Below, piece after piece: positions 3,486-64,000 of a stretch of 64,000 bases of DNA. A program made the position numbers and the translations under genes. Every line of letters begins with the position of its first letter. The stretch's first letter is position 1. The notes under the pieces were generated by a model. The model was given only the letters and a program-made list of their open reading frames with translations, was not told the DNA's origin and ran no database searches. The stretch is from an uncultured Gammaproteobacteria bacterium (GTDB lineage Bacteria; Patescibacteriota; Patescibacteriia; Patescibacteriales; UBA12465), in assembly GCA_964570655.1 (NCBI GenBank), contig CAZMYU010000004.1, forward strand, positions 49-64,048, read 5' to 3'.

Positions 3486-4565
3486 ATGGCTAAAAGAGTT
3501 ATAATTAGTGCTCCAGGACGCTTGCATTTTAATAGTTTAAAAATGAATTCATTTGGTGGGCGTGGCTGTGGTGGTATTGGTTTGTCCTTGACTCGACCCA
3601 GGATGACTCTAATCTTTGATCGCGCCCCCGAAATTATAATTGTTGGTGCCAATAAACAATTACGTAAAAAAATTGAGAATTTTGCCCGAGAGGTTCTTAA
3701 ATGTATTAAATCGGAGCTGGGAGTCCGCATTGAAGTCGTTGAATTTTTTCCTGGTCAAATTGGATTGGGCAGCGGCACACAGTTGGGTTTGAGTGTTGGT
3801 CAAGGAATTGGTTTGTTATATGGCAAGAAATTTAAGATTGACGATATTGCTAAATTGACGAAAAGGAGTGGGGTTTCTGGGATCGGCTATTACGCTTTTT
3901 CTAAAGGCGGATTAATTGTTGATGGTGGTTATCGAATGGGAGAACATGAAGCTAAGAAGAGCTTTGCTGACCATAGTCCGACGCCGCCACCTCTTGTCGG
4001 GCGTTATCGTTTTCCGGATAATTGGAAGATTTTACTTATCTCGCCGCAAGGAACCCCAAAAAAGAATTCTGATATTGATGAAGGGGAATTATTTTTGAAA
4101 AATACTCCGATTCCGCTCGATGAAGTCGGGTCTATTTGTTCGTATGTGCTTATGGGTATGATTCCAGCTCTCCAGGAGAGGGATTATTTTGCTTTTATGG
4201 CTGGTTTGTCGCGTATTGGTCATATTGGCACAAAAAAAATCGAACTCGAATTGAATAAAAAAAATTTGGAAGATATTAATACTCGTCTAGATGGTTTATT
4301 GGTCAATAAATTAATAAGAAATGGTGAAAATGAATTTTACTGGCATGACCTGTCTGGTTTTGATATCAAAGAAAATTTTTCACCAGATAAGATACCCTGT
4401 TTGTTGCTTAGTTCTTTGGGACCTTCACTTTTTTCTATTTTGTTGAGTGAATATCATAATTTTGAAAAAATATTATCTGAATTAGCCAGTAAATTGCCAA
4501 AAGGTTGGAAAGCAGATATTGTTTCTGCTAATAATAACCCAGTAAAAATCGAAATAATTGATTGA
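3486..4565 (+). CDS. GHMP-kinase-fold enzyme, beta-RFAP synthase / archaeal-type sugar kinase-like
   Basis: GQIGLGSGTQLGLSVG (GHMP motif II in the GLGSGTQL form); ATG at 3486 follows the upstream stop by 1 nt. Confidence 0.6.
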   Translation: MAKRVIISAPGRLHFNSLKMNSFGGRGCGGIGLSLTRPRMTLIFDRAPEIIIVGANKQLRKKIENFAREVLKCIKSELGVRIEVVEFFPGQIGLGSGTQLGLSVGQGIGLLYGKKFKIDDIAKLTKRSGVSGIGYYAFSKGGLIVDGGYRMGEHEAKKSFADHSPTPPPLVGRYRFPDNWKILLISPQGTPKKNSDIDEGELFLKNTPIPLDEVGSICSYVLMGMIPALQERDYFAFMAGLSRIGHIGTKKIELELNKKNLEDINTRLDGLLVNKLIRNGENEFYWHDLSGFDIKENFSPDKIPCLLLSSLGPSLFSILLSEYHNFEKILSELASKLPKGWKADIVSANNNPVKIEIID

Positions 4566-8337: not shown

Positions 8338-8378
8338 CACTCTGGCACTCTGGTGCCTGGCACCAGAGTGCCAGAGTG
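8338..8378. repeat. 41-nt perfect palindrome centred on CCTGG
   Basis: CACTCTGGCACTCTGGTGCC-t-GGCACCAGAGTGCCAGAGTG; core GGTGCCWGGCACC shared with 28131-28167. Confidence 0.85.
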
Positions 8379-8441: not shown

Positions 8442-9062
8442 ATGCCAGTTTCAAATTTTTATGCTGTCGGCAATCGCTGTGCGGTTGACCTGAGTTCTTT
8501 TAATTTGCCAATTTCTAATGATGAAGCTTTAACGATTTTGCAGACCAAGGGTTTTAGAGTGATCGATATTGATATTATTAGCGAGGCCAGAAAACTTATT
8601 GGTCAAGCCAAATACAAATTTGCGGCTCGATCATTTGAGGCCCCGGACTATGTGGACTGTTCAACTTTTGTAAAATATCTTTATGGACTCCTAGGCATTT
8701 GGTTGCCTCGTCGGTCGATTCAGCAGTTTTGTTTTGGTGATAAAATCACTGATTCTTCTTGGTTATTGTCGGGCGATCTGATTTTTACCGAAGGCTTGGT
8801 TGTTAATTATTATCTTAATGAACCATCCGAGGCTATTGGTCATGTTGCTATTTTTACTGGTCAGGATAGTATTATTCAAATTACTCTACCGAGCAAGGGT
8901 CTGGGCGAAATTTCATTTCAATCGTTTATGGAAACCAGAAAGATTAGAGGCTTTGGAAGAATATTGCCAACCGATCGGAAAATTATCACTTTACTTTGCC
9001 CCGGCGAAAGAGAAGTGGAACAAAGCGACGACATCAAATGGATACTGCTTCAATCATTGTGA
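8442..9062 (+). CDS. NlpC/P60 (C40) cell-wall peptidase family protein
   Basis: DCSTFVKYLY (catalytic Cys context), GDLIFT and IGHVAIFTG blocks in canonical order. Confidence 0.7.
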   Translation: MPVSNFYAVGNRCAVDLSSFNLPISNDEALTILQTKGFRVIDIDIISEARKLIGQAKYKFAARSFEAPDYVDCSTFVKYLYGLLGIWLPRRSIQQFCFGDKITDSSWLLSGDLIFTEGLVVNYYLNEPSEAIGHVAIFTGQDSIIQITLPSKGLGEISFQSFMETRKIRGFGRILPTDRKIITLLCPGEREVEQSDDIKWILLQSL

Positions 9063-9136: not shown

Positions 9137-9901
9137 ATGTTAGAAAAATTTCTTAGAGACATTGGTTTAAACGACAAAGAGCTGGCGATTTATCTAGAGC
9201 TTTTAAAGCTAGAAAATTGCTCGGTTTTGGATTTGTCCAAAAAGACCAAGATTCTCAGGACTACTATTTACCCAATTTTAAACGACCTAGAACAGAAGGG
9301 GCTTATCTCTCGGGTGCAGGTTGGCAAAAAAATAAACTTTCAAGCCGAAGCTCCGGAAAAATTAAACACCTTTATTGAAACTCAGAAACTAAAGTTGGCT
9401 GAACAATCTAAATTGGCTAGCGAATATATTCCTCAGCTCAAGAGTTTATCTAGGCAAACTGGCGAGAAGCCGGTTATCAAGGTCTATGATGGCCGAGAGG
9501 GAATTATTAAGGCCAATGAAGAATCTTTTGGTTATGACAAGGAGAACCCCAATGATATCTCCTATTTTATTTATCCATTTGATTTGTTAGAAAAGTTTTT
9601 TTCTGGTTCGGAGATTCAAAAAGCTCGGGGCGTTCGGCTGACCAAACATATCAAGTCAAAATCTCTTTATACTTATTCCAAGGGAGAGCGGGGATCAGAT
9701 GAATATTCTCGGAGAATACGGATTGATGGCGCGAAATATCCGGTTAAATGCGATATTAGTATTTATCGAGATAGAGTCAGAATTCATACTTTGGGAAAAT
9801 CTTTGTCTTCAGTCCTAATTAAGAGCCAAGACATTGCTGATACTTTGAAGTCACTATTTGAATTGATATTTGACCATTTGGATAAGAAGTCGAAAAAATA
9901 A
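9137..9901 (+). CDS. TrmB-family HTH transcriptional regulator
   Basis: N-terminal LGLNDKELAIYLELLK...SVLDLSKKTKILRTTIYPILNDLEQKGLI winged-helix; terminator at 9930-9956. Confidence 0.6.
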   Translation: MLEKFLRDIGLNDKELAIYLELLKLENCSVLDLSKKTKILRTTIYPILNDLEQKGLISRVQVGKKINFQAEAPEKLNTFIETQKLKLAEQSKLASEYIPQLKSLSRQTGEKPVIKVYDGREGIIKANEESFGYDKENPNDISYFIYPFDLLEKFFSGSEIQKARGVRLTKHIKSKSLYTYSKGERGSDEYSRRIRIDGAKYPVKCDISIYRDRVRIHTLGKSLSSVLIKSQDIADTLKSLFELIFDHLDKKSKK

Positions 9902-10696
9902 CATTTTAATTTTTTTTTTAAAATAGTAAAGCCGCTGTCTGGGACAGCGGCTTTTTCTTAACAAGATTCTTCTGAATTAATTTTTTTTAAAATTTTAATT
10001 TTTTCAGAACTTTTTTCTAGCTGAGCTTGGACCCATTGTTAGTCAAGTTGCAATTGCAATAAATTACATCTGACTTTTTTAGATCTCTTTTGGTCTAGCT
10101 TTGGCCTTTTTAAATTCTCTTGAAATTAATCTCCCACTTTCAACACCTCCTTTTCGTGTTTTTTAAATTGTTTGTATTATCACGACGCATGACGAGGGCC
10201 TATTTAGGGGGCGGTACCTGGTACCGCCTTCCCCGAGATAAAGCTTTAGTCCTGCATATTCGTCGTTTTTAAAGGTTATTAGGATTATAGCAGGTATTAA
10301 TTCAGCTGTCAAGGCTTATGGCCAAAACTGTCCAAAATTAAAAACAGCAATTTATGGGGTTATTTAAGCAAATAAAAGTAATTAATAAAGTTTGTCAAAA
10401 AATATTAACACTATAAAAAAAGTGTTTAAAATTTATTACACTTTTTGCTATAAAATACCCTATTTTTCTAGCTTTTTTGAGTTATCCACAGAATTCTGAC
10501 AAAGCCTATTGACATATTTATTTTCGTATGCTAGGGTATGACCATAGTGATGTTTGACATTCGACCCAAATTTAATTGCTTGATTTATGTTTGTAAGGTT
10601 TTAGCCTTAGAGCTAAAATTCCAAACAATAATTTTTCCAAAATATACTTGTCTTTATGCCTTTATAGGCATAAACCAACCAATTAAATTTGAAATT

Positions 10697-10858
10697 ATGA
10701 GCAATAATCAGAATAAACAGGATTTAATTAAAAAAGCTAATCGTTTACTGCGAAAAGCTGGATATTCTTGGATTGGTACGGAACTCGCCAGTAAACTGCG
10801 TGGTCAGGCAGTTTTTGAAAAGCGCATCATTATGACTCCGATGGGGAACAAACGATGA
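10697..10858 (+). CDS. Possible 53-aa basic protein (MSNNQNKQDLIKKANRLLRK...)
   Basis: Only the distal ATG of ORF 10538-10858 gives a non-junk N-terminus; sits directly upstream of the structured ORF-free segment. Confidence 0.3.
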   Translation: MSNNQNKQDLIKKANRLLRKAGYSWIGTELASKLRGQAVFEKRIIMTPMGNKR

Positions 10859-10879
10859 TAACTCGTTTGCTCCCTGCCT

Positions 10880-11310
10880 ACTGAAAGAACTTTGAAATTT
10901 AAATAAAATTTAAATAAAGATGTTGAGGGTTGGTCTGGCCTCATGTAGGCTGCTCCGGCTGAAATTAGACTAGGTTGTCGACATCGTTTCGCTCGCTATG
11001 TCCTTGACGGGATATCCTTTGGCAGGGGGCGAGTGTTAACGGTAAAGTGATTGGAATTAGGAGGAAACAATTCTACTCACGAATTGTTTACTAGGCCTTT
11101 TTCAGCCATCACGGCCTTCCATAGAACTCTCATCTTCGCTATTGCGGGATTGGGAGGGCTGCTCAGGTTGGACGCCTGATTAGCCTCTGGAAAAGTTTGT
11201 CTTTAGCAATATCAGCCAAGATAGCGCTAAGGGCAGGCAGAGTCGACTAAAACAGGGTGGCTGGTTCCAAAGAGGATCAGCTACCCTTCATTTTGCTTCG
11301 CAAAATAATT
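10880..11310 (+). ncRNA. Candidate structured RNA of unknown class (boundaries and strand approximate)
   Basis: About 430 nt with no ORF of 60 aa or more in any frame; visibly GC-richer than flanks; stems AAACAATTC/GAATTGTTT (11066-11090), AGGCC/GGCCT, GGGTGGCTGGTTCC/AGGATCAGCTACCC (11256-11287). Confidence 0.35.
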
Positions 11311-11877
11311 AACAATTAAAAATTAATAATAAAAAATTAACTATCAGACTCGGCAATTGGTCCCAGGCTTTTGAGGGTAAGAAAAAGTGGTTCTAATTTG
11401 GTCGCACCTTTCTTCGGCCAGGTTGTAAGAATCTGCTATTTTTTTGGAGTAAGAATGAATTTCTATAGTCAATTTATTCATATTCAAAAAGATAGCGCCG
11501 ATCTGATGAAGCAGCGCCTAGATCAAACTCTGGCTTGGGGGATTGAAAAAGTATCCAACTTGTTGAGCTCTTGATCGACTATATAGGACTAGGGGGAAAT
11601 TTGTCGATTTCAGCCCTCTAGTTTCGCTAATTAATTTACTTGGAAAGAAAGGAAAATCAAGTCCAAGATTAATTAAGCGAACGTTAAAAAAAAGAAATCG
11701 AATTGGAGGACTAGGGGTTGCCAAACCCCCGGTTCTCTGAAAAATTTTTGGAAACCATTGTTTCCACCCCCAAAGCGATGATAGAAAAAACTACTCATCG
11801 CTTTTTTTAATTTTTTTGAGTCATTGACAGAAGGTTAGAAAAACAATATAACAGTAGTATAAAGATAAACAAATAAC

Positions 11878-12297
11878 ATGTCTCATTTTACTATTTCGGC
11901 TATTTTTCCTTTTAGTCCCCAAGACGAGGAGAAAATGAAGGATCTAATAGCTAATCACAAGGAAAATTTAATGGATCAATTAGCCAAGAAAATTACCAAG
12001 CCCTTGGGTCTTTATGATATCAATCGGGGCGGTGAAGATGATTCCAGTCGCGAGGGGATTTTTGATTCTTGGGGAGCCAGTGATGTCCTGTTGATTGAGG
12101 ATTTACTGCAAGATAAGGATTTTGTCAGCCACGCTATTTTTAGTCCAGAGTGTCGGCTAATTGAAAGCCCACAGGCCTTTTATTGGTTTGATAAAACGCA
12201 AGAAAAAGAATTTATTAGTTGGCAGCAAAAATATCGGGAGATTTTAAAAGAATACTCACCTCATAGCTTCGTCCTCTTAATCGATTGTCATATTTGA
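11878..12297 (+). CDS. Hypothetical protein
   Basis: 139-aa ORF, acidic, no recognised motif. Confidence 0.5.
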   Translation: MSHFTISAIFPFSPQDEEKMKDLIANHKENLMDQLAKKITKPLGLYDINRGGEDDSSREGIFDSWGASDVLLIEDLLQDKDFVSHAIFSPECRLIESPQAFYWFDKTQEKEFISWQQKYREILKEYSPHSFVLLIDCHI

Positions 12298-23572: not shown

Positions 23573-23603
23573 CTGTCATCCTGGCGAAGGCCAGGATCCA
23601 GGT
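23573..23603. repeat. CTGTCATCC-hairpin-GGATCCAGG element, copy R1
   Basis: CTGTCATCCTGGCgaagGCCAGGATCCAGGT; identical to 54060-54090. Confidence 0.85.
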
Positions 23604-26182: not shown

Positions 26183-26214
26183 GCTGGATCCCCAATCAAG
26201 TTGGGGATGACAGA
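26183..26214. repeat. CTGTCATCC-hairpin-GGATCCAG element, copy R4 (inverted orientation)
   Basis: Reverse complement reads TCTGTCATCCCCAActtgaTTGGGGATCCAGC. Confidence 0.8.
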
Positions 26215-52511: not shown

Positions 52512-53894
52512 ATGGCCTCTAATGTAATTTATACTTGCTCGAAGTGCGGCGCCCAATTTCCAAAATGGAGTGGGCGTTGTTTGGAATGTGGAGCTTGGGG
52601 AACCATTGGCGAAGAGACAGTCGAAAAAGAAGGAGAAGTGCGGGGGCTCAAATCTTTGGATTTGAAAAAAATAAAAGGAGCTAATTTGGTTGATCTCAGC
52701 CAGGTCTCGGCTTTGAGTAGTGAACGCTTGCAAACGGGTTGGCCGGAAATAGATCGAGTTTTAGGTGGCGGTTTAGTAAAAGGCTCGCTTATTTTGCTGG
52801 CTGGTGAGCCAGGAATTGGTAAGTCTACTTTAGCCAATCAAATCACCGATTTACTTGGGGTCAGACCCCAAGGGGAGGGGTCTGACCCCAGCTCTATAAT
52901 CTATGTTTCTGGTGAAGAATCAGCTAGTCAGGTCAAGACTCGCTTAGAAAGATTAGGCTGTGATTTGCATAAGACCAAGTTTATTGGTGAAACTCACTTG
53001 GAAAAAATCATGAGCTCTCTTTTGGAATTGAAACCAGCGCTGGTGATTATTGATTCTATTCAAACTATTTATTCGTCGGAGTTGCCTTCGGAGGCTGGCA
53101 GCTTGAATCAAATTCGAGCAGTGGCGGTCAAGTTTTTAGAACTAGCCAAGACCCATGATATTACTATTTTTCTCATCGGGCATATTACCAAAGACGGGCA
53201 AATCGCTGGGCCCAAATCGCTCGAGCATATTGTGGATACCGTGCTGTATTTAGAAAATGATCAGACCCATTTTTCGATTTTACGAGCAGTCAAAAATCGT
53301 TTTGGTTCGCTCAATGAAATTGGTGTACTAGAAATGACTAGCAGTGGGTTTAAGGAAATAAAAAACCCTTCAGCGATTTTTATTGAAGGGATGAACGAAG
53401 AAATTGCCGGCTCAGCGATGGGGGTGATTTTGGAAGGAACTCGGCCTTTTATTGTTAATATCCAGGCCCTAGTGACCAAAACTATTTTTGGTTATCCCCA
53501 AAGAAAATGTGCGGGTTTTGATGTGAATCGACTTCAGATTTTGTCAGCGGTGCTGAGTCGTAAAAATAAAATCAATTTAAGTACTCAGGATATCGTCCTC
53601 AATTTAGTGGGTGGGCTCAAGACTAATGATCCGGCTTTAGATTTGGCCGCGGTGATGGCCATGGTCTCGTCGTATTTGAATCAACCGCTTCCGCGGGATT
53701 TAATTATTATTGGTGAGATTGGACTAGGCGGAGAAGTTCGGCCGGTCAAAAATTTAGAAACGAGAGTTAAGGAAGCTGTTAAATTAGGTTTTAAAACTAT
53801 TATGGTCCCGGATTCTCTAAATAGTATTAGCGGAGTTAAATTATTGAAAGTGAAAAATATTAGCGAAGCCTTGAAATTATTATCAAATAAGTAG
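52512..53894 (+). CDS. radA: DNA repair protein RadA/Sms
   Basis: CSKCGAQFPKWSGRCLECGAWGT zinc finger, GEPGIGKST, KNRFG, Lon-like C-terminal domain. Confidence 0.95.
   Translation: MASNVIYTCSKCGAQFPKWSGRCLECGAWGTIGEETVEKEGEVRGLKSLDLKKIKGANLVDLSQVSALSSERLQTGWPEIDRVLGGGLVKGSLILLAGEPGIGKSTLANQITDLLGVRPQGEGSDPSSIIYVSGEESASQVKTRLERLGCDLHKTKFIGETHLEKIMSSLLELKPALVIIDSIQTIYSSELPSEAGSLNQIRAVAVKFLELAKTHDITIFLIGHITKDGQIAGPKSLEHIVDTVLYLENDQTHFSILRAVKNRFGSLNEIGVLEMTSSGFKEIKNPSAIFIEGMNEEIAGSAMGVILEGTRPFIVNIQALVTKTIFGYPQRKCAGFDVNRLQILSAVLSRKNKINLSTQDIVLNLVGGLKTNDPALDLAAVMAMVSSYLNQPLPRDLIIIGEIGLGGEVRPVKNLETRVKEAVKLGFKTIMVPDSLNSISGVKLLKVKNISEALKLLSNK
52857..52889. repeat. 33-nt paired-palindrome element lying in frame inside radA
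   Basis: GGGGTCAGACCCC-aagggga-GGGGTCTGACCCC = codons GVRPQGEGSDP between Walker A and YVSGEES. Confidence 0.8.
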
Positions 53895-54059: not shown

Positions 54060-54090
54060 CTGTCATCCTGGCGAAGGCCAGGATCCAGGT
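54060..54090. repeat. CTGTCATCC-hairpin-GGATCCAGG element, copy R2
   Basis: 31/31 identical to 23573-23603. Confidence 0.85.
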
Positions 54091-58095: not shown

Positions 58096-58127
58096 CTGTC
58101 ATCCCCAGCTTGACTGGGGATCCAGGA
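58096..58127. repeat. CTGTCATCC-hairpin-GGATCCAGG element, copy R3
   Basis: CTGTCATCCCCAGcttgaCTGGGGATCCAGGA nested inside the AT-rich inverted repeat 58041-58153. Confidence 0.8.
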
Positions 58128-63515: not shown

Positions 63516-63592
63516 GCGGAGGGGTGCCCCCACTTCGTCCTACTTCGCCCTTGCGGGCTTCGCAGGACTACGAGGGGCAGGCAGAGCGGTTT
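63516..63592 (+). other. tRNA 5'-half-like fragment (copy 1) interrupted by a 54-nt GC-rich element
   Basis: GCGGAGGGGTGCC + insert + AGAGCGGTTT; the uninterrupted version is at 63634-63656. Confidence 0.6.
63529..63582. mobile_element. GC-rich nested-hairpin element, copy C, at a filled site
   Basis: CCCC-ACTTCG-TCCT-acttc-GCCC-ttgc-GGGC-ttcgc-AGGA-CTACGA-GGGG; boundaries ambiguous by 1-2 nt. Confidence 0.6.
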
Positions 63593-63633
63593 TTAAATAA
63601 TAAACTATAAATATAAAATAATTTAATTTCAAA

Positions 63634-63672
63634 GCGGAGGGGTGCCAGAGCGGTTTAATAGGATAGTCTTGC
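63634..63672 (+). other. tRNA 5'-half-like fragment (copy 2, class II tRNA-like acceptor and D-arm)
   Basis: GCGGAGGGGTGCCAGAGCGGTTTAATAGGATAGTCTTG resembles the 5' part of Ser/Leu/Tyr-type tRNAs; no anticodon stem partner or T-arm follows. Confidence 0.45.
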
Positions 63673-63740
63673 CACCGCCTTCGGCGGGGTCCCGCCTTCA
63701 CATAATGTAATATCGGTGGCGGGAAAAACTGTCAGTGTGT

Positions 63741-63986
63741 ATGTGGTATACTTATATATTAAAAAGTAAAAACTTTAATAAATATTATATAGGTCATTGT
63801 GAGGATTTTGACAAAAGATTAAGCCAGCATAATAATGGAAAAACAAAATCTATTAAGGCCTATATTCCTTATGAGTTAATATATTATGAAAATTTTGATT
63901 TTAAGAAGGATGCCTATAGAAGAGAAATGCAAATAAAAAAATATAAAGGAGGTGAGGCATTTAAAAAATTACTAAAATTAATTTAA
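63741..63986 (+). CDS. Small stand-alone GIY-YIG nuclease-domain protein
   Basis: WYTYILKS...KYYIGHCEDFDKRLSQHNNG...PYELIYYENF...AYRREMQIKKY = GIY, YIG, Arg, Glu and Asn positions of the GIY-YIG fold. Confidence 0.8.
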   Translation: MWYTYILKSKNFNKYYIGHCEDFDKRLSQHNNGKTKSIKAYIPYELIYYENFDFKKDAYRREMQIKKYKGGEAFKKLLKLI

Positions 63987-64000
63987 TAATACAGCGGAGG

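Follow-up and report, generated by a model that had tools for sequence, protein, structure and literature searches.

REPs carrying a CGTC tag were defined by Di Nocera, De Gregorio and Rocco (2013; PMC3733652) as high-copy, dispersed elements that occur in five phyla and have no dedicated transposase. The tag often reads TGTC, and a CCTC variant is also found. Stems are 8-9 bp long, their first two positions being complementary A-T and T-A, and are followed by a short, unpaired CCA 3' tail; the loop measures 4 nt in the CGTC-1 family and 5 nt in CGTC-2, as it does throughout families 2-4 (PMC3733652).

A protein that reads elements of this kind has since been described in Neisseria, where the NTS, CGTCATTCCCGCGMAVGCGGGAATCYRG, and its generalised form, the SRM, are bound and cut by SsnA (Chenal et al., 2025; PMC11893778). 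SsnA is a single-domain GIY-YIG ssDNA endonuclease of about 94 aa (clade cd10448) with the catalytic residues Y6/Y17/E64, and it acts on the ssDNA form of one strand only, not on RNA, dsDNA or the reverse strand. It cuts a few nt 5' of the tag, and mutagenesis showed that binding depends critically on the C that follows the palindrome, and cleavage on the three bases that precede it (PMC11893778). SRMs lie near 71 % of ssnA homologues (PMC11893778). The NTS are an oriented subset of the dRS3 repeats of Neisseria.

Here we describe four hairpins in a 64-kb stretch of DNA from a Patescibacteria (CPR) bacterium, referred to below as the window. Taken as a whole, they are best explained as members of the CGTC/TGTC-tagged REP super-family, the motif class to which NTS and SRM also belong, and we put the probability of this reading at roughly 0.7. 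The host phylum is absent from both published accounts (Di Nocera et al., 2013; Chenal et al., 2025), the element class itself having already been described. The finding adds a CPR host to a repeat class that has been known since 2013 and was mechanistically explained in other bacteria in 2025, and by itself it matters little.

Four tagged hairpins in the window

The four copies and their make-up are as follows:

23573-23603, + strand: copy 1, CTGTC-ATCCTGGC-GAAG-GCCAGGAT-CCAGGT
26183-26213, - strand: copy 2 (inverted), CTGTC-ATCCCCAA-CTTGA-TTGGGGAT-CCAGC
54060-54090, + strand: copy 3, the same 31-mer as copy 1
58096-58126, + strand: copy 4, CTGTC-ATCCCCAG-CTTGA-CTGGGGAT-CCAGG

All share the form CTGTC-ATCCNNNN-loop-NNNNGGAT-CCAG. 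Copies 1 and 3 are identical at 31/31 nt, and copies 2 and 4, which have the 5-nt loop CTTGA in common, are one compensated stem pair apart (G-C versus A-T). A first-pass annotation of the window had listed these hairpins with their stems and loops, and all were recovered where it had placed them; the CTGTC and CCAG flanks that it called constant are present in 4/4 copies.

The gene contexts it gave, namely the PBP2 3' end, the recG 3' end, the divergent tRNA-Ser spacer and the region upstream of dnaK, likewise matched. Copy 1 directly follows a PBP2-type gene (Transpeptidase + PBP_dimer), its first base being the one next to the TAA stop, and the next ORF is 15 nt downstream. Copy 2 is inside the grpE-dnaK spacer of the hrcA-grpE-dnaK operon, antisense to the operon, and a radA-like gene (+) and a recG gene (-) converge on copy 3. 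The divergent spacer that contains copy 4 separates tRNA-Ser(GCT) (-) from an ORF on the + strand, and the copy is 68 nt upstream of the tRNA 5' end. Gene 3' ends immediately precede three of the four copies. All four are singletons, with no head-to-head dimers in the window.

The motif is far more frequent than expected by chance. GTCATCC-N8-20-GGAT matches the window four times against 0.15 expected, a count reached in 0/100 shuffles, and the full 30- and 31-mer patterns at up to 3 mismatches recover the same four copies only (0.05 and 0.00 expected). Taken singly, the 9-mer half-motifs show no enrichment in the window, so the non-random part is their combination. Rfam, at gathering and at permissive thresholds, returned no family for the hairpins, and a literature search by sequence strings returned cloning primers with BamHI sites and nothing else.

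Compared with the CGTC-tagged REPs, all four copies have an unpaired TGTC tag abutting the stem, an 8-bp stem, ATCCNNNN/NNNNGGAT, that begins with AT, and a CCAG tail that fits CCA. Their loops, GAAG in two copies and CTTGA in the other two, represent both published lengths. They are also intergenic and mostly 3' of genes, and their stems are heterogeneous within one genome. Besides the CPR host, the difference is that the window copies stand alone, whereas head-to-head dimers are dominant elsewhere. The density seen is four copies in 64 kb versus 0.15 expected.

The likeness to NTS is similarly close. NTS, written CGTC-ATTCCCGC-GMAV-GCGGGAAT-CYRG, can be set beside TGTC-ATCCTGGC-GAAG-GCCAGGAT-CCAG in the window, whose tail C-C-A-G equals the NTS ending CYRG. 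All four copies keep the positions that are critical in NTS/SRM, GTC on the 5' side and C on the 3' side of the palindrome. The published SRM search pattern, HGTCWYN(0-2)YYVSBRHN(0-5)WNVSBRGN(0-2)RNCYNB (PMC11893778), has 3 matches in the window versus 0.07 in shuffles, copies 1 and 3 being among them; an A within the stem excludes copies 2 and 4. The role of NTS and Ssn in Neisseria transformation does not transfer by default to a CPR bacterium.

Short tagged hairpins of another kind, the GTAG REPs and REPINs of the REPIN/RAYT system, are also dispersed and intergenic, and a small dedicated enzyme recognises them in the form of ssDNA; the analogy was noted by the authors of the Ssn study (PMC11893778). 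The window hairpins could on this basis be of the REPIN/RAYT type and owe their mobility to a domesticated IS200/IS605-like Y1 transposase that recognises a short, imperfect palindrome, yet tag, tail and enzyme family all differ, the tag here being TGTC and not GTAG. A tblastn search with an IS200 TnpA query, which is a weak test, gave no match to the window or to any of the 172 loci fetched, and no RAYT was found. Overall we consider such an origin very improbable.

The hairpins might instead serve chiefly as attachment or target sites for other mobile DNA, for example IS110-family elements or filamentous phages. In Neisseria, dRS3 repeats serve as such sites, as described in the Nf prophage literature, and the window hairpins and dRS3 belong to a common repeat class. 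However, no IS or prophage adjoins any of the four copies in the window, and a use of this kind would be secondary, leaving the origin and conservation of the family unexplained. We therefore give attachment-site function very little weight next to the tagged-REP reading.

Insertion relative to syntenic relatives

The first-pass annotation had proposed comparison with related genomes. The nearest relatives by GrpE are Falkowbacteria and similar MAGs at 63-67 % identity, and since this identity is low, presence and absence were judged by coarser synteny. Two Patescibacteria loci, L171 and L172, are syntenic with the window over PBP2, a gene of about 396 aa, hrcA, grpE, dnaK, dnaJ, tatD and ATP synthase genes. 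Neither contains a TGTC hairpin in the 20 kb examined of each, and the copies are missing from the corresponding operons. The spacer between PBP2 and the next gene is 5-6 nt in L171 and L172 versus 45 nt in the window, and the grpE-dnaK spacer is 42 nt, without a hairpin, in L172 versus 60 nt in the window.

Because the syntenic relatives lack the hairpins and have shorter spacers, the window copies are insertions and not ancestral operon signals. The window's Patescibacteria lineage gained them by insertion into intergenic spacers, for the most part directly downstream of genes. For annotation, these 30-mers are best treated as probable SRM-type REP insertions, and not as operon-specific regulators of PBP2, dnaK or recG.

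Fold and selection on the stem

Folded as ssDNA, all four copies adopt the same structure, (((..((((((((loop)))))))).))), in which the outer CTG and CAG also pair, around a TC/C internal loop. Folding energies are dG -8.6 to -10 kcal/mol, with z from -3.8 to -4.75.

The pattern CTGTCATCC-N10-18-GGATCCAG was then used to scan one genome per species, 596 Gb in all, an amount of sequence in which several hundred matches are expected by chance. The scan gave at least 119 loci, and 129 hairpin matches were analysed among the matches listed. In most of these, a perfect further stem lies inside the fixed ATCC/GGAT, and the test of pairing was limited to the four inner stem pairs that the search pattern leaves free. 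Watson-Crick pairs filled 454 of the 515 free stem cells (88 %) in the 129 hits, and G-T pairs 18, against a Watson-Crick mean of 241 (47 %) and a maximum of 272 when partners were shuffled. Among the same hits there were 21 different inner stems.

Double-sided changes occur at all four free pairs, in 37 cells versus 12.3 in shuffles, with 0/500 shuffles as high. The set on which this rests comprises 29 distinct 30-mers, window copies 2 and 4 among them; sliding the partner by one column in these 30-mers lowers pairing from 96 % to 39-48 %. The stem interior had been read in the first-pass annotation as changing with its pairing kept, and the 88 % of Watson-Crick pairs against 47 % in shuffles, together with covariation of all four free pairs, bears this out. 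Mismatches as common as compensated pairs would have spoken for a stem free of such constraint. They proved far rarer, the earlier reading stands, and the hairpin structure is therefore under selection. For the class as a whole this is an independent confirmation of structural selection, obtained at unbiased stem positions and from over a hundred genomes.

A subfamily with the stem ATCCTGAGCGAAGCGAAGGAT (L107, L017, L024, L023, L075 and L106) has two stem positions that are always G-A/A-G. These tandem sheared pairs, which enclose a GCGAAGC mini-hairpin, are the source of most 'mismatches' counted in the pairing test.

Spread, orientation and position across genomes

The loci found by the scan, at least 119, are distributed over Patescibacteria (CPR), Nitrospirota, Alpha-, Beta- and Gammaproteobacteria, Planctomycetota, Zixibacteria and others. 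When the exact 25-mer of the window, GTCATCCTGGCGAAGGCCAGGATCC, was compared with metagenomes, it was found on 37 contigs (L131-L167) from unrelated organisms with a GC content of 33-68 %; none of the 37 belongs to the window's own lineage. Head-to-head dimers with a spacing of about 45 nt are frequent on these contigs, and dense arrays occur on some. One contig (L163) has 8 copies, alternating, within 425 nt, and on another (L136) a GIY-YIG gene stands beside 9 copies within 700 nt.

With crude gene calls, the matches listed included 44 between co-directional genes (27 sense and 17 antisense), 25 between convergent genes, 5 between divergent genes and 30 called intragenic, a noisy class. The position pattern of this sample agrees with the published one (Di Nocera et al., 2013; PMC3733652). 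The asymmetric 5' tag and 3' tail are retained in either orientation to transcription, which argues for an element that is read at the DNA level.

Two further associations were considered and rejected. Clustering near tRNA genes was an idea suggested by copy 4 and by L015, but 3 of the 129 matches listed are at most 500 nt from a tRNA, which is roughly the chance level. A locus with 5 hairpins in 6 kb (L049) was checked for a linked transposase, and has ribonucleotide reductase genes only, with the hairpins in the spacers.

An action at the RNA level, with the hairpins serving as co-transcribed 3' mRNA stabilisers, attenuators or translational couplers, would account for part of this pattern. 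Three of the four window copies lie just 3' of a gene, co-directional and convergent spacers (44 and 25) far outnumber divergent ones (5) among the matches listed, any transcript across the hairpins would fold, and Di Nocera et al. drew the same inference (PMC3733652). However, a plain RNA hairpin needs no asymmetry of tag and tail, and this asymmetry is conserved in sense (27) and antisense (17) copies alike, copy 2 being antisense. None of the four hairpins scores as an intrinsic (Rho-independent) terminator, although ordinary hairpin and T-run terminators nearby are called and are many in the genome. The same operons do without the copies in syntenic relatives, and the RNA form is not bound by SsnA (PMC11893778). 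We regard an RNA-level role as unlikely. The preference that had been expressed for a DNA-level or mobile, REP-like role over one RNA function is supported by the published REP anatomy, the match to motifs that SsnA recognises as ssDNA only, the occurrence in both orientations and the absence from syntenic relatives.

As a tagged REP, the unit is a short autonomous element made up of an unpaired (C)TGTC tag, an 8-bp stem beginning with AT, a 4- or 5-nt loop and a C-CAG tail, with a stem interior free to vary as long as it stays paired. The constancy of the tag, of the first stem pairs and of the C that follows the stem would reflect recognition by a protein on one strand. Most probably, the hairpin folds whenever that strand becomes single-stranded, in replication, repair or DNA uptake, and a small Ssn-type GIY-YIG ssDNA endonuclease then binds it and nicks a few nt 5' of the tag. 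We infer that such a nuclease acts on the four window copies.

GIY-YIG genes near the hairpins

A small GIY-YIG gene was found near hairpins in eight of the loci fetched from other genomes (L107, L037, L035, L058, L113, L158, L136 and L141), confirming that hairpin-flanked genes of this type recur. The distance between gene and hairpin is at most 2.2 kb in all eight, and in seven it is at most 120 nt or the hairpin overlaps an extended ORF. In L058 the match to the search pattern is 2.1 kb from the gene, and a related hairpin with a CTCG tail is 61 nt away. The eight proteins fall into a single subgroup, 'group B', characterised by the pattern HK.G..DGFTK...REKQIK.W.R.WK and a catalytic Tyr-Tyr-Glu spacing of 11 and 47 residues, which appears to be that of Y6/Y17/E64 in SsnA. 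In other genomes, the TGTC hairpins are associated with this one GIY-YIG subgroup.

The window encodes a small GIY-YIG protein of its own:

63741-63986, + strand: 81-aa single-domain GIY-YIG protein, 'group A' (Pfam PF01541, E = 1e-14)

This protein scores 144 bits on the group A profile versus 38 on that of group B, and its identity to group B is 23-32 %. Its gene lies 5.6 kb from the nearest canonical hairpin; an SRM match 47 nt upstream consists of tRNA-derived sequence and a different, CCGCC hairpin. A hairpin-flanked, group B gene was not found in the 64-kb window. Nine further group A loci likewise lack a TGTC hairpin close to the gene: in eight of them no such hairpin occurs over ±10 kb or as far as the contig extends, and L015 has three, about 2 kb off. 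The window shows no candidate partner nuclease other than the 81-aa protein, whose link to the hairpins is uncertain. Since it falls in another subgroup than the hairpin-flanked genes, we do not assign it to the hairpins as their partner nuclease. Sequence searches of NCBIfam and the PDB did not separate the two subgroups, both of which give weak matches to UPF0213 proteins, and the PDB contains no Ssn structure.

tRNA-linked GIY-YIG genes in CPR lineages

The stop codon of the window's group A gene is 9 nt before an intact tRNA-Ser(UGA), which starts at 63996; this region, from 63518 on, continues past the window end in contig L121 (to 927). The same layout occurs in six other CPR lineages: group A ORFs end 0-30 nt before an intact same-strand tRNA in the window/L121, L122/L123, L124, L126, L168, L128 and L015, the tRNAs concerned being Ser-UGA, Tyr-GTA and Val-GAC. 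A partial copy of the same tRNA lies upstream of the ORF. In the Ser and Tyr cases, the homology of this partial copy extends up to the anticodon loop and is then broken for 40-52 nt by two G+C-rich hairpins, CCACCGCC-NNN-GGCGGGG and a second one, before it resumes at the 3' strand of the anticodon stem and is followed by the ATG. The closest published analogue that we found is SegB of phage T4, a GIY-YIG homing endonuclease in a tRNA cluster, and the literature searched held no description of this tRNA/GIY-YIG architecture in CPR.

In the window, the partial copy, of the 5' half of the tRNA, is at 63636-63671, the double-hairpin insert at 63672-63724 and the resumed homology at 63725-63733. 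A second, older partial copy (63518-63595) has a 54-nt insert, CCCACTTCGTCC...GGGGCAGGC (63529-63582). G+C-rich hairpin inserts in the D-loop or T-loop are also present in L168 (~3853-3886), L122 (~9900-9920) and L015 (~4099-4117 and ~4176-4211). These extra inserts in partial tRNAs suggest a second type of miniature insertion that favours tRNA-like DNA. The CCGCC-N3-GGCGG hairpin of the group A genes is not dispersed, being present in a single copy in the window.

Small GIY-YIG genes of a further subgroup also stand beside tRNA genes in CPR contigs, in L169 (1085-1321), L170 (9512-9754) and L125-L127 (~1449-1943). The gene in L170 ends 3 nt before a tRNA-Thr, and in L169 and L170 the same CGCC-TWC-GGCGGGGT hairpin as in the group A units is placed after the ORF instead. 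Linkage to tRNA genes may be general for small GIY-YIG genes in CPR.

Two observations place sequence resembling the hairpin tag near these units. The 3' strand of the anticodon stem and the variable arm of tRNA-Ser(UGA) (L121, 870-900) read CTGTC-GTCCG-TGAAAG-CGGAC-C, that is, an SRM-like tag, a hairpin and a C, and the homology of the upstream copy breaks a few nt 5' of it, which is possibly coincidental. In L128 (9965-9990), the exact 9-mer of the hairpin tag, CTGTCATCC, occurs 16 nt upstream of the group A start codon. It comes right after 13 nt that repeat the 5' end of tRNA-Val, and does not lead into a proper hairpin.

By its layout, the group A unit looks like a tiny cassette that targets and restores tRNA genes. 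A more far-reaching proposal would have the TGTC hairpins of the window read by the divergent group A GIY-YIG protein and not by a canonical Ssn; Ssn-like nucleases would then be, or derive from, self-propagating homing cassettes that restore tRNAs, and REP-like hairpins would be their decoy or footprint sites. We hold this to be decidedly unlikely. The tRNA-linked second GIY-YIG subgroup is nonetheless the more interesting lead from the window, as it may be relevant to the spread of Ssn-type nucleases and their hairpins.

Other hairpins in the window

One further hairpin may be a diverged relative of the four copies:

10650-10675, + strand: possible diverged relative, tTGTC-TTTATGCCT-TTAT-AGGCATAAA-CCAA

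It keeps the tag and the CCA tail, but has a 9-bp stem without the initial AT; its membership in the family is putative. The element lies within a stretch of about 2 kb (9900-11880) that has no ORF of more than 106 aa and contains many small hairpins.

Three other perfect hairpins were also seen. At the window start, a long hairpin at 25-68 has a 20-bp stem. Upstream of the ORF at 8442-9062, positions 8338-8378 form a 19-bp perfect palindrome, CACTCTGGCACTCTGGTGC-ctg-GCACCAGAGTGCCAGAGTG, whose GCACTC...GAGTGC core we take to recall the CIRCE operator of HrcA, a protein that the window encodes. Finally, a 14-bp stem, TGGGGTCAGACCCC...GGGGTCTGACCCCA, is found at 52856-52890, inside the radA-like ORF.
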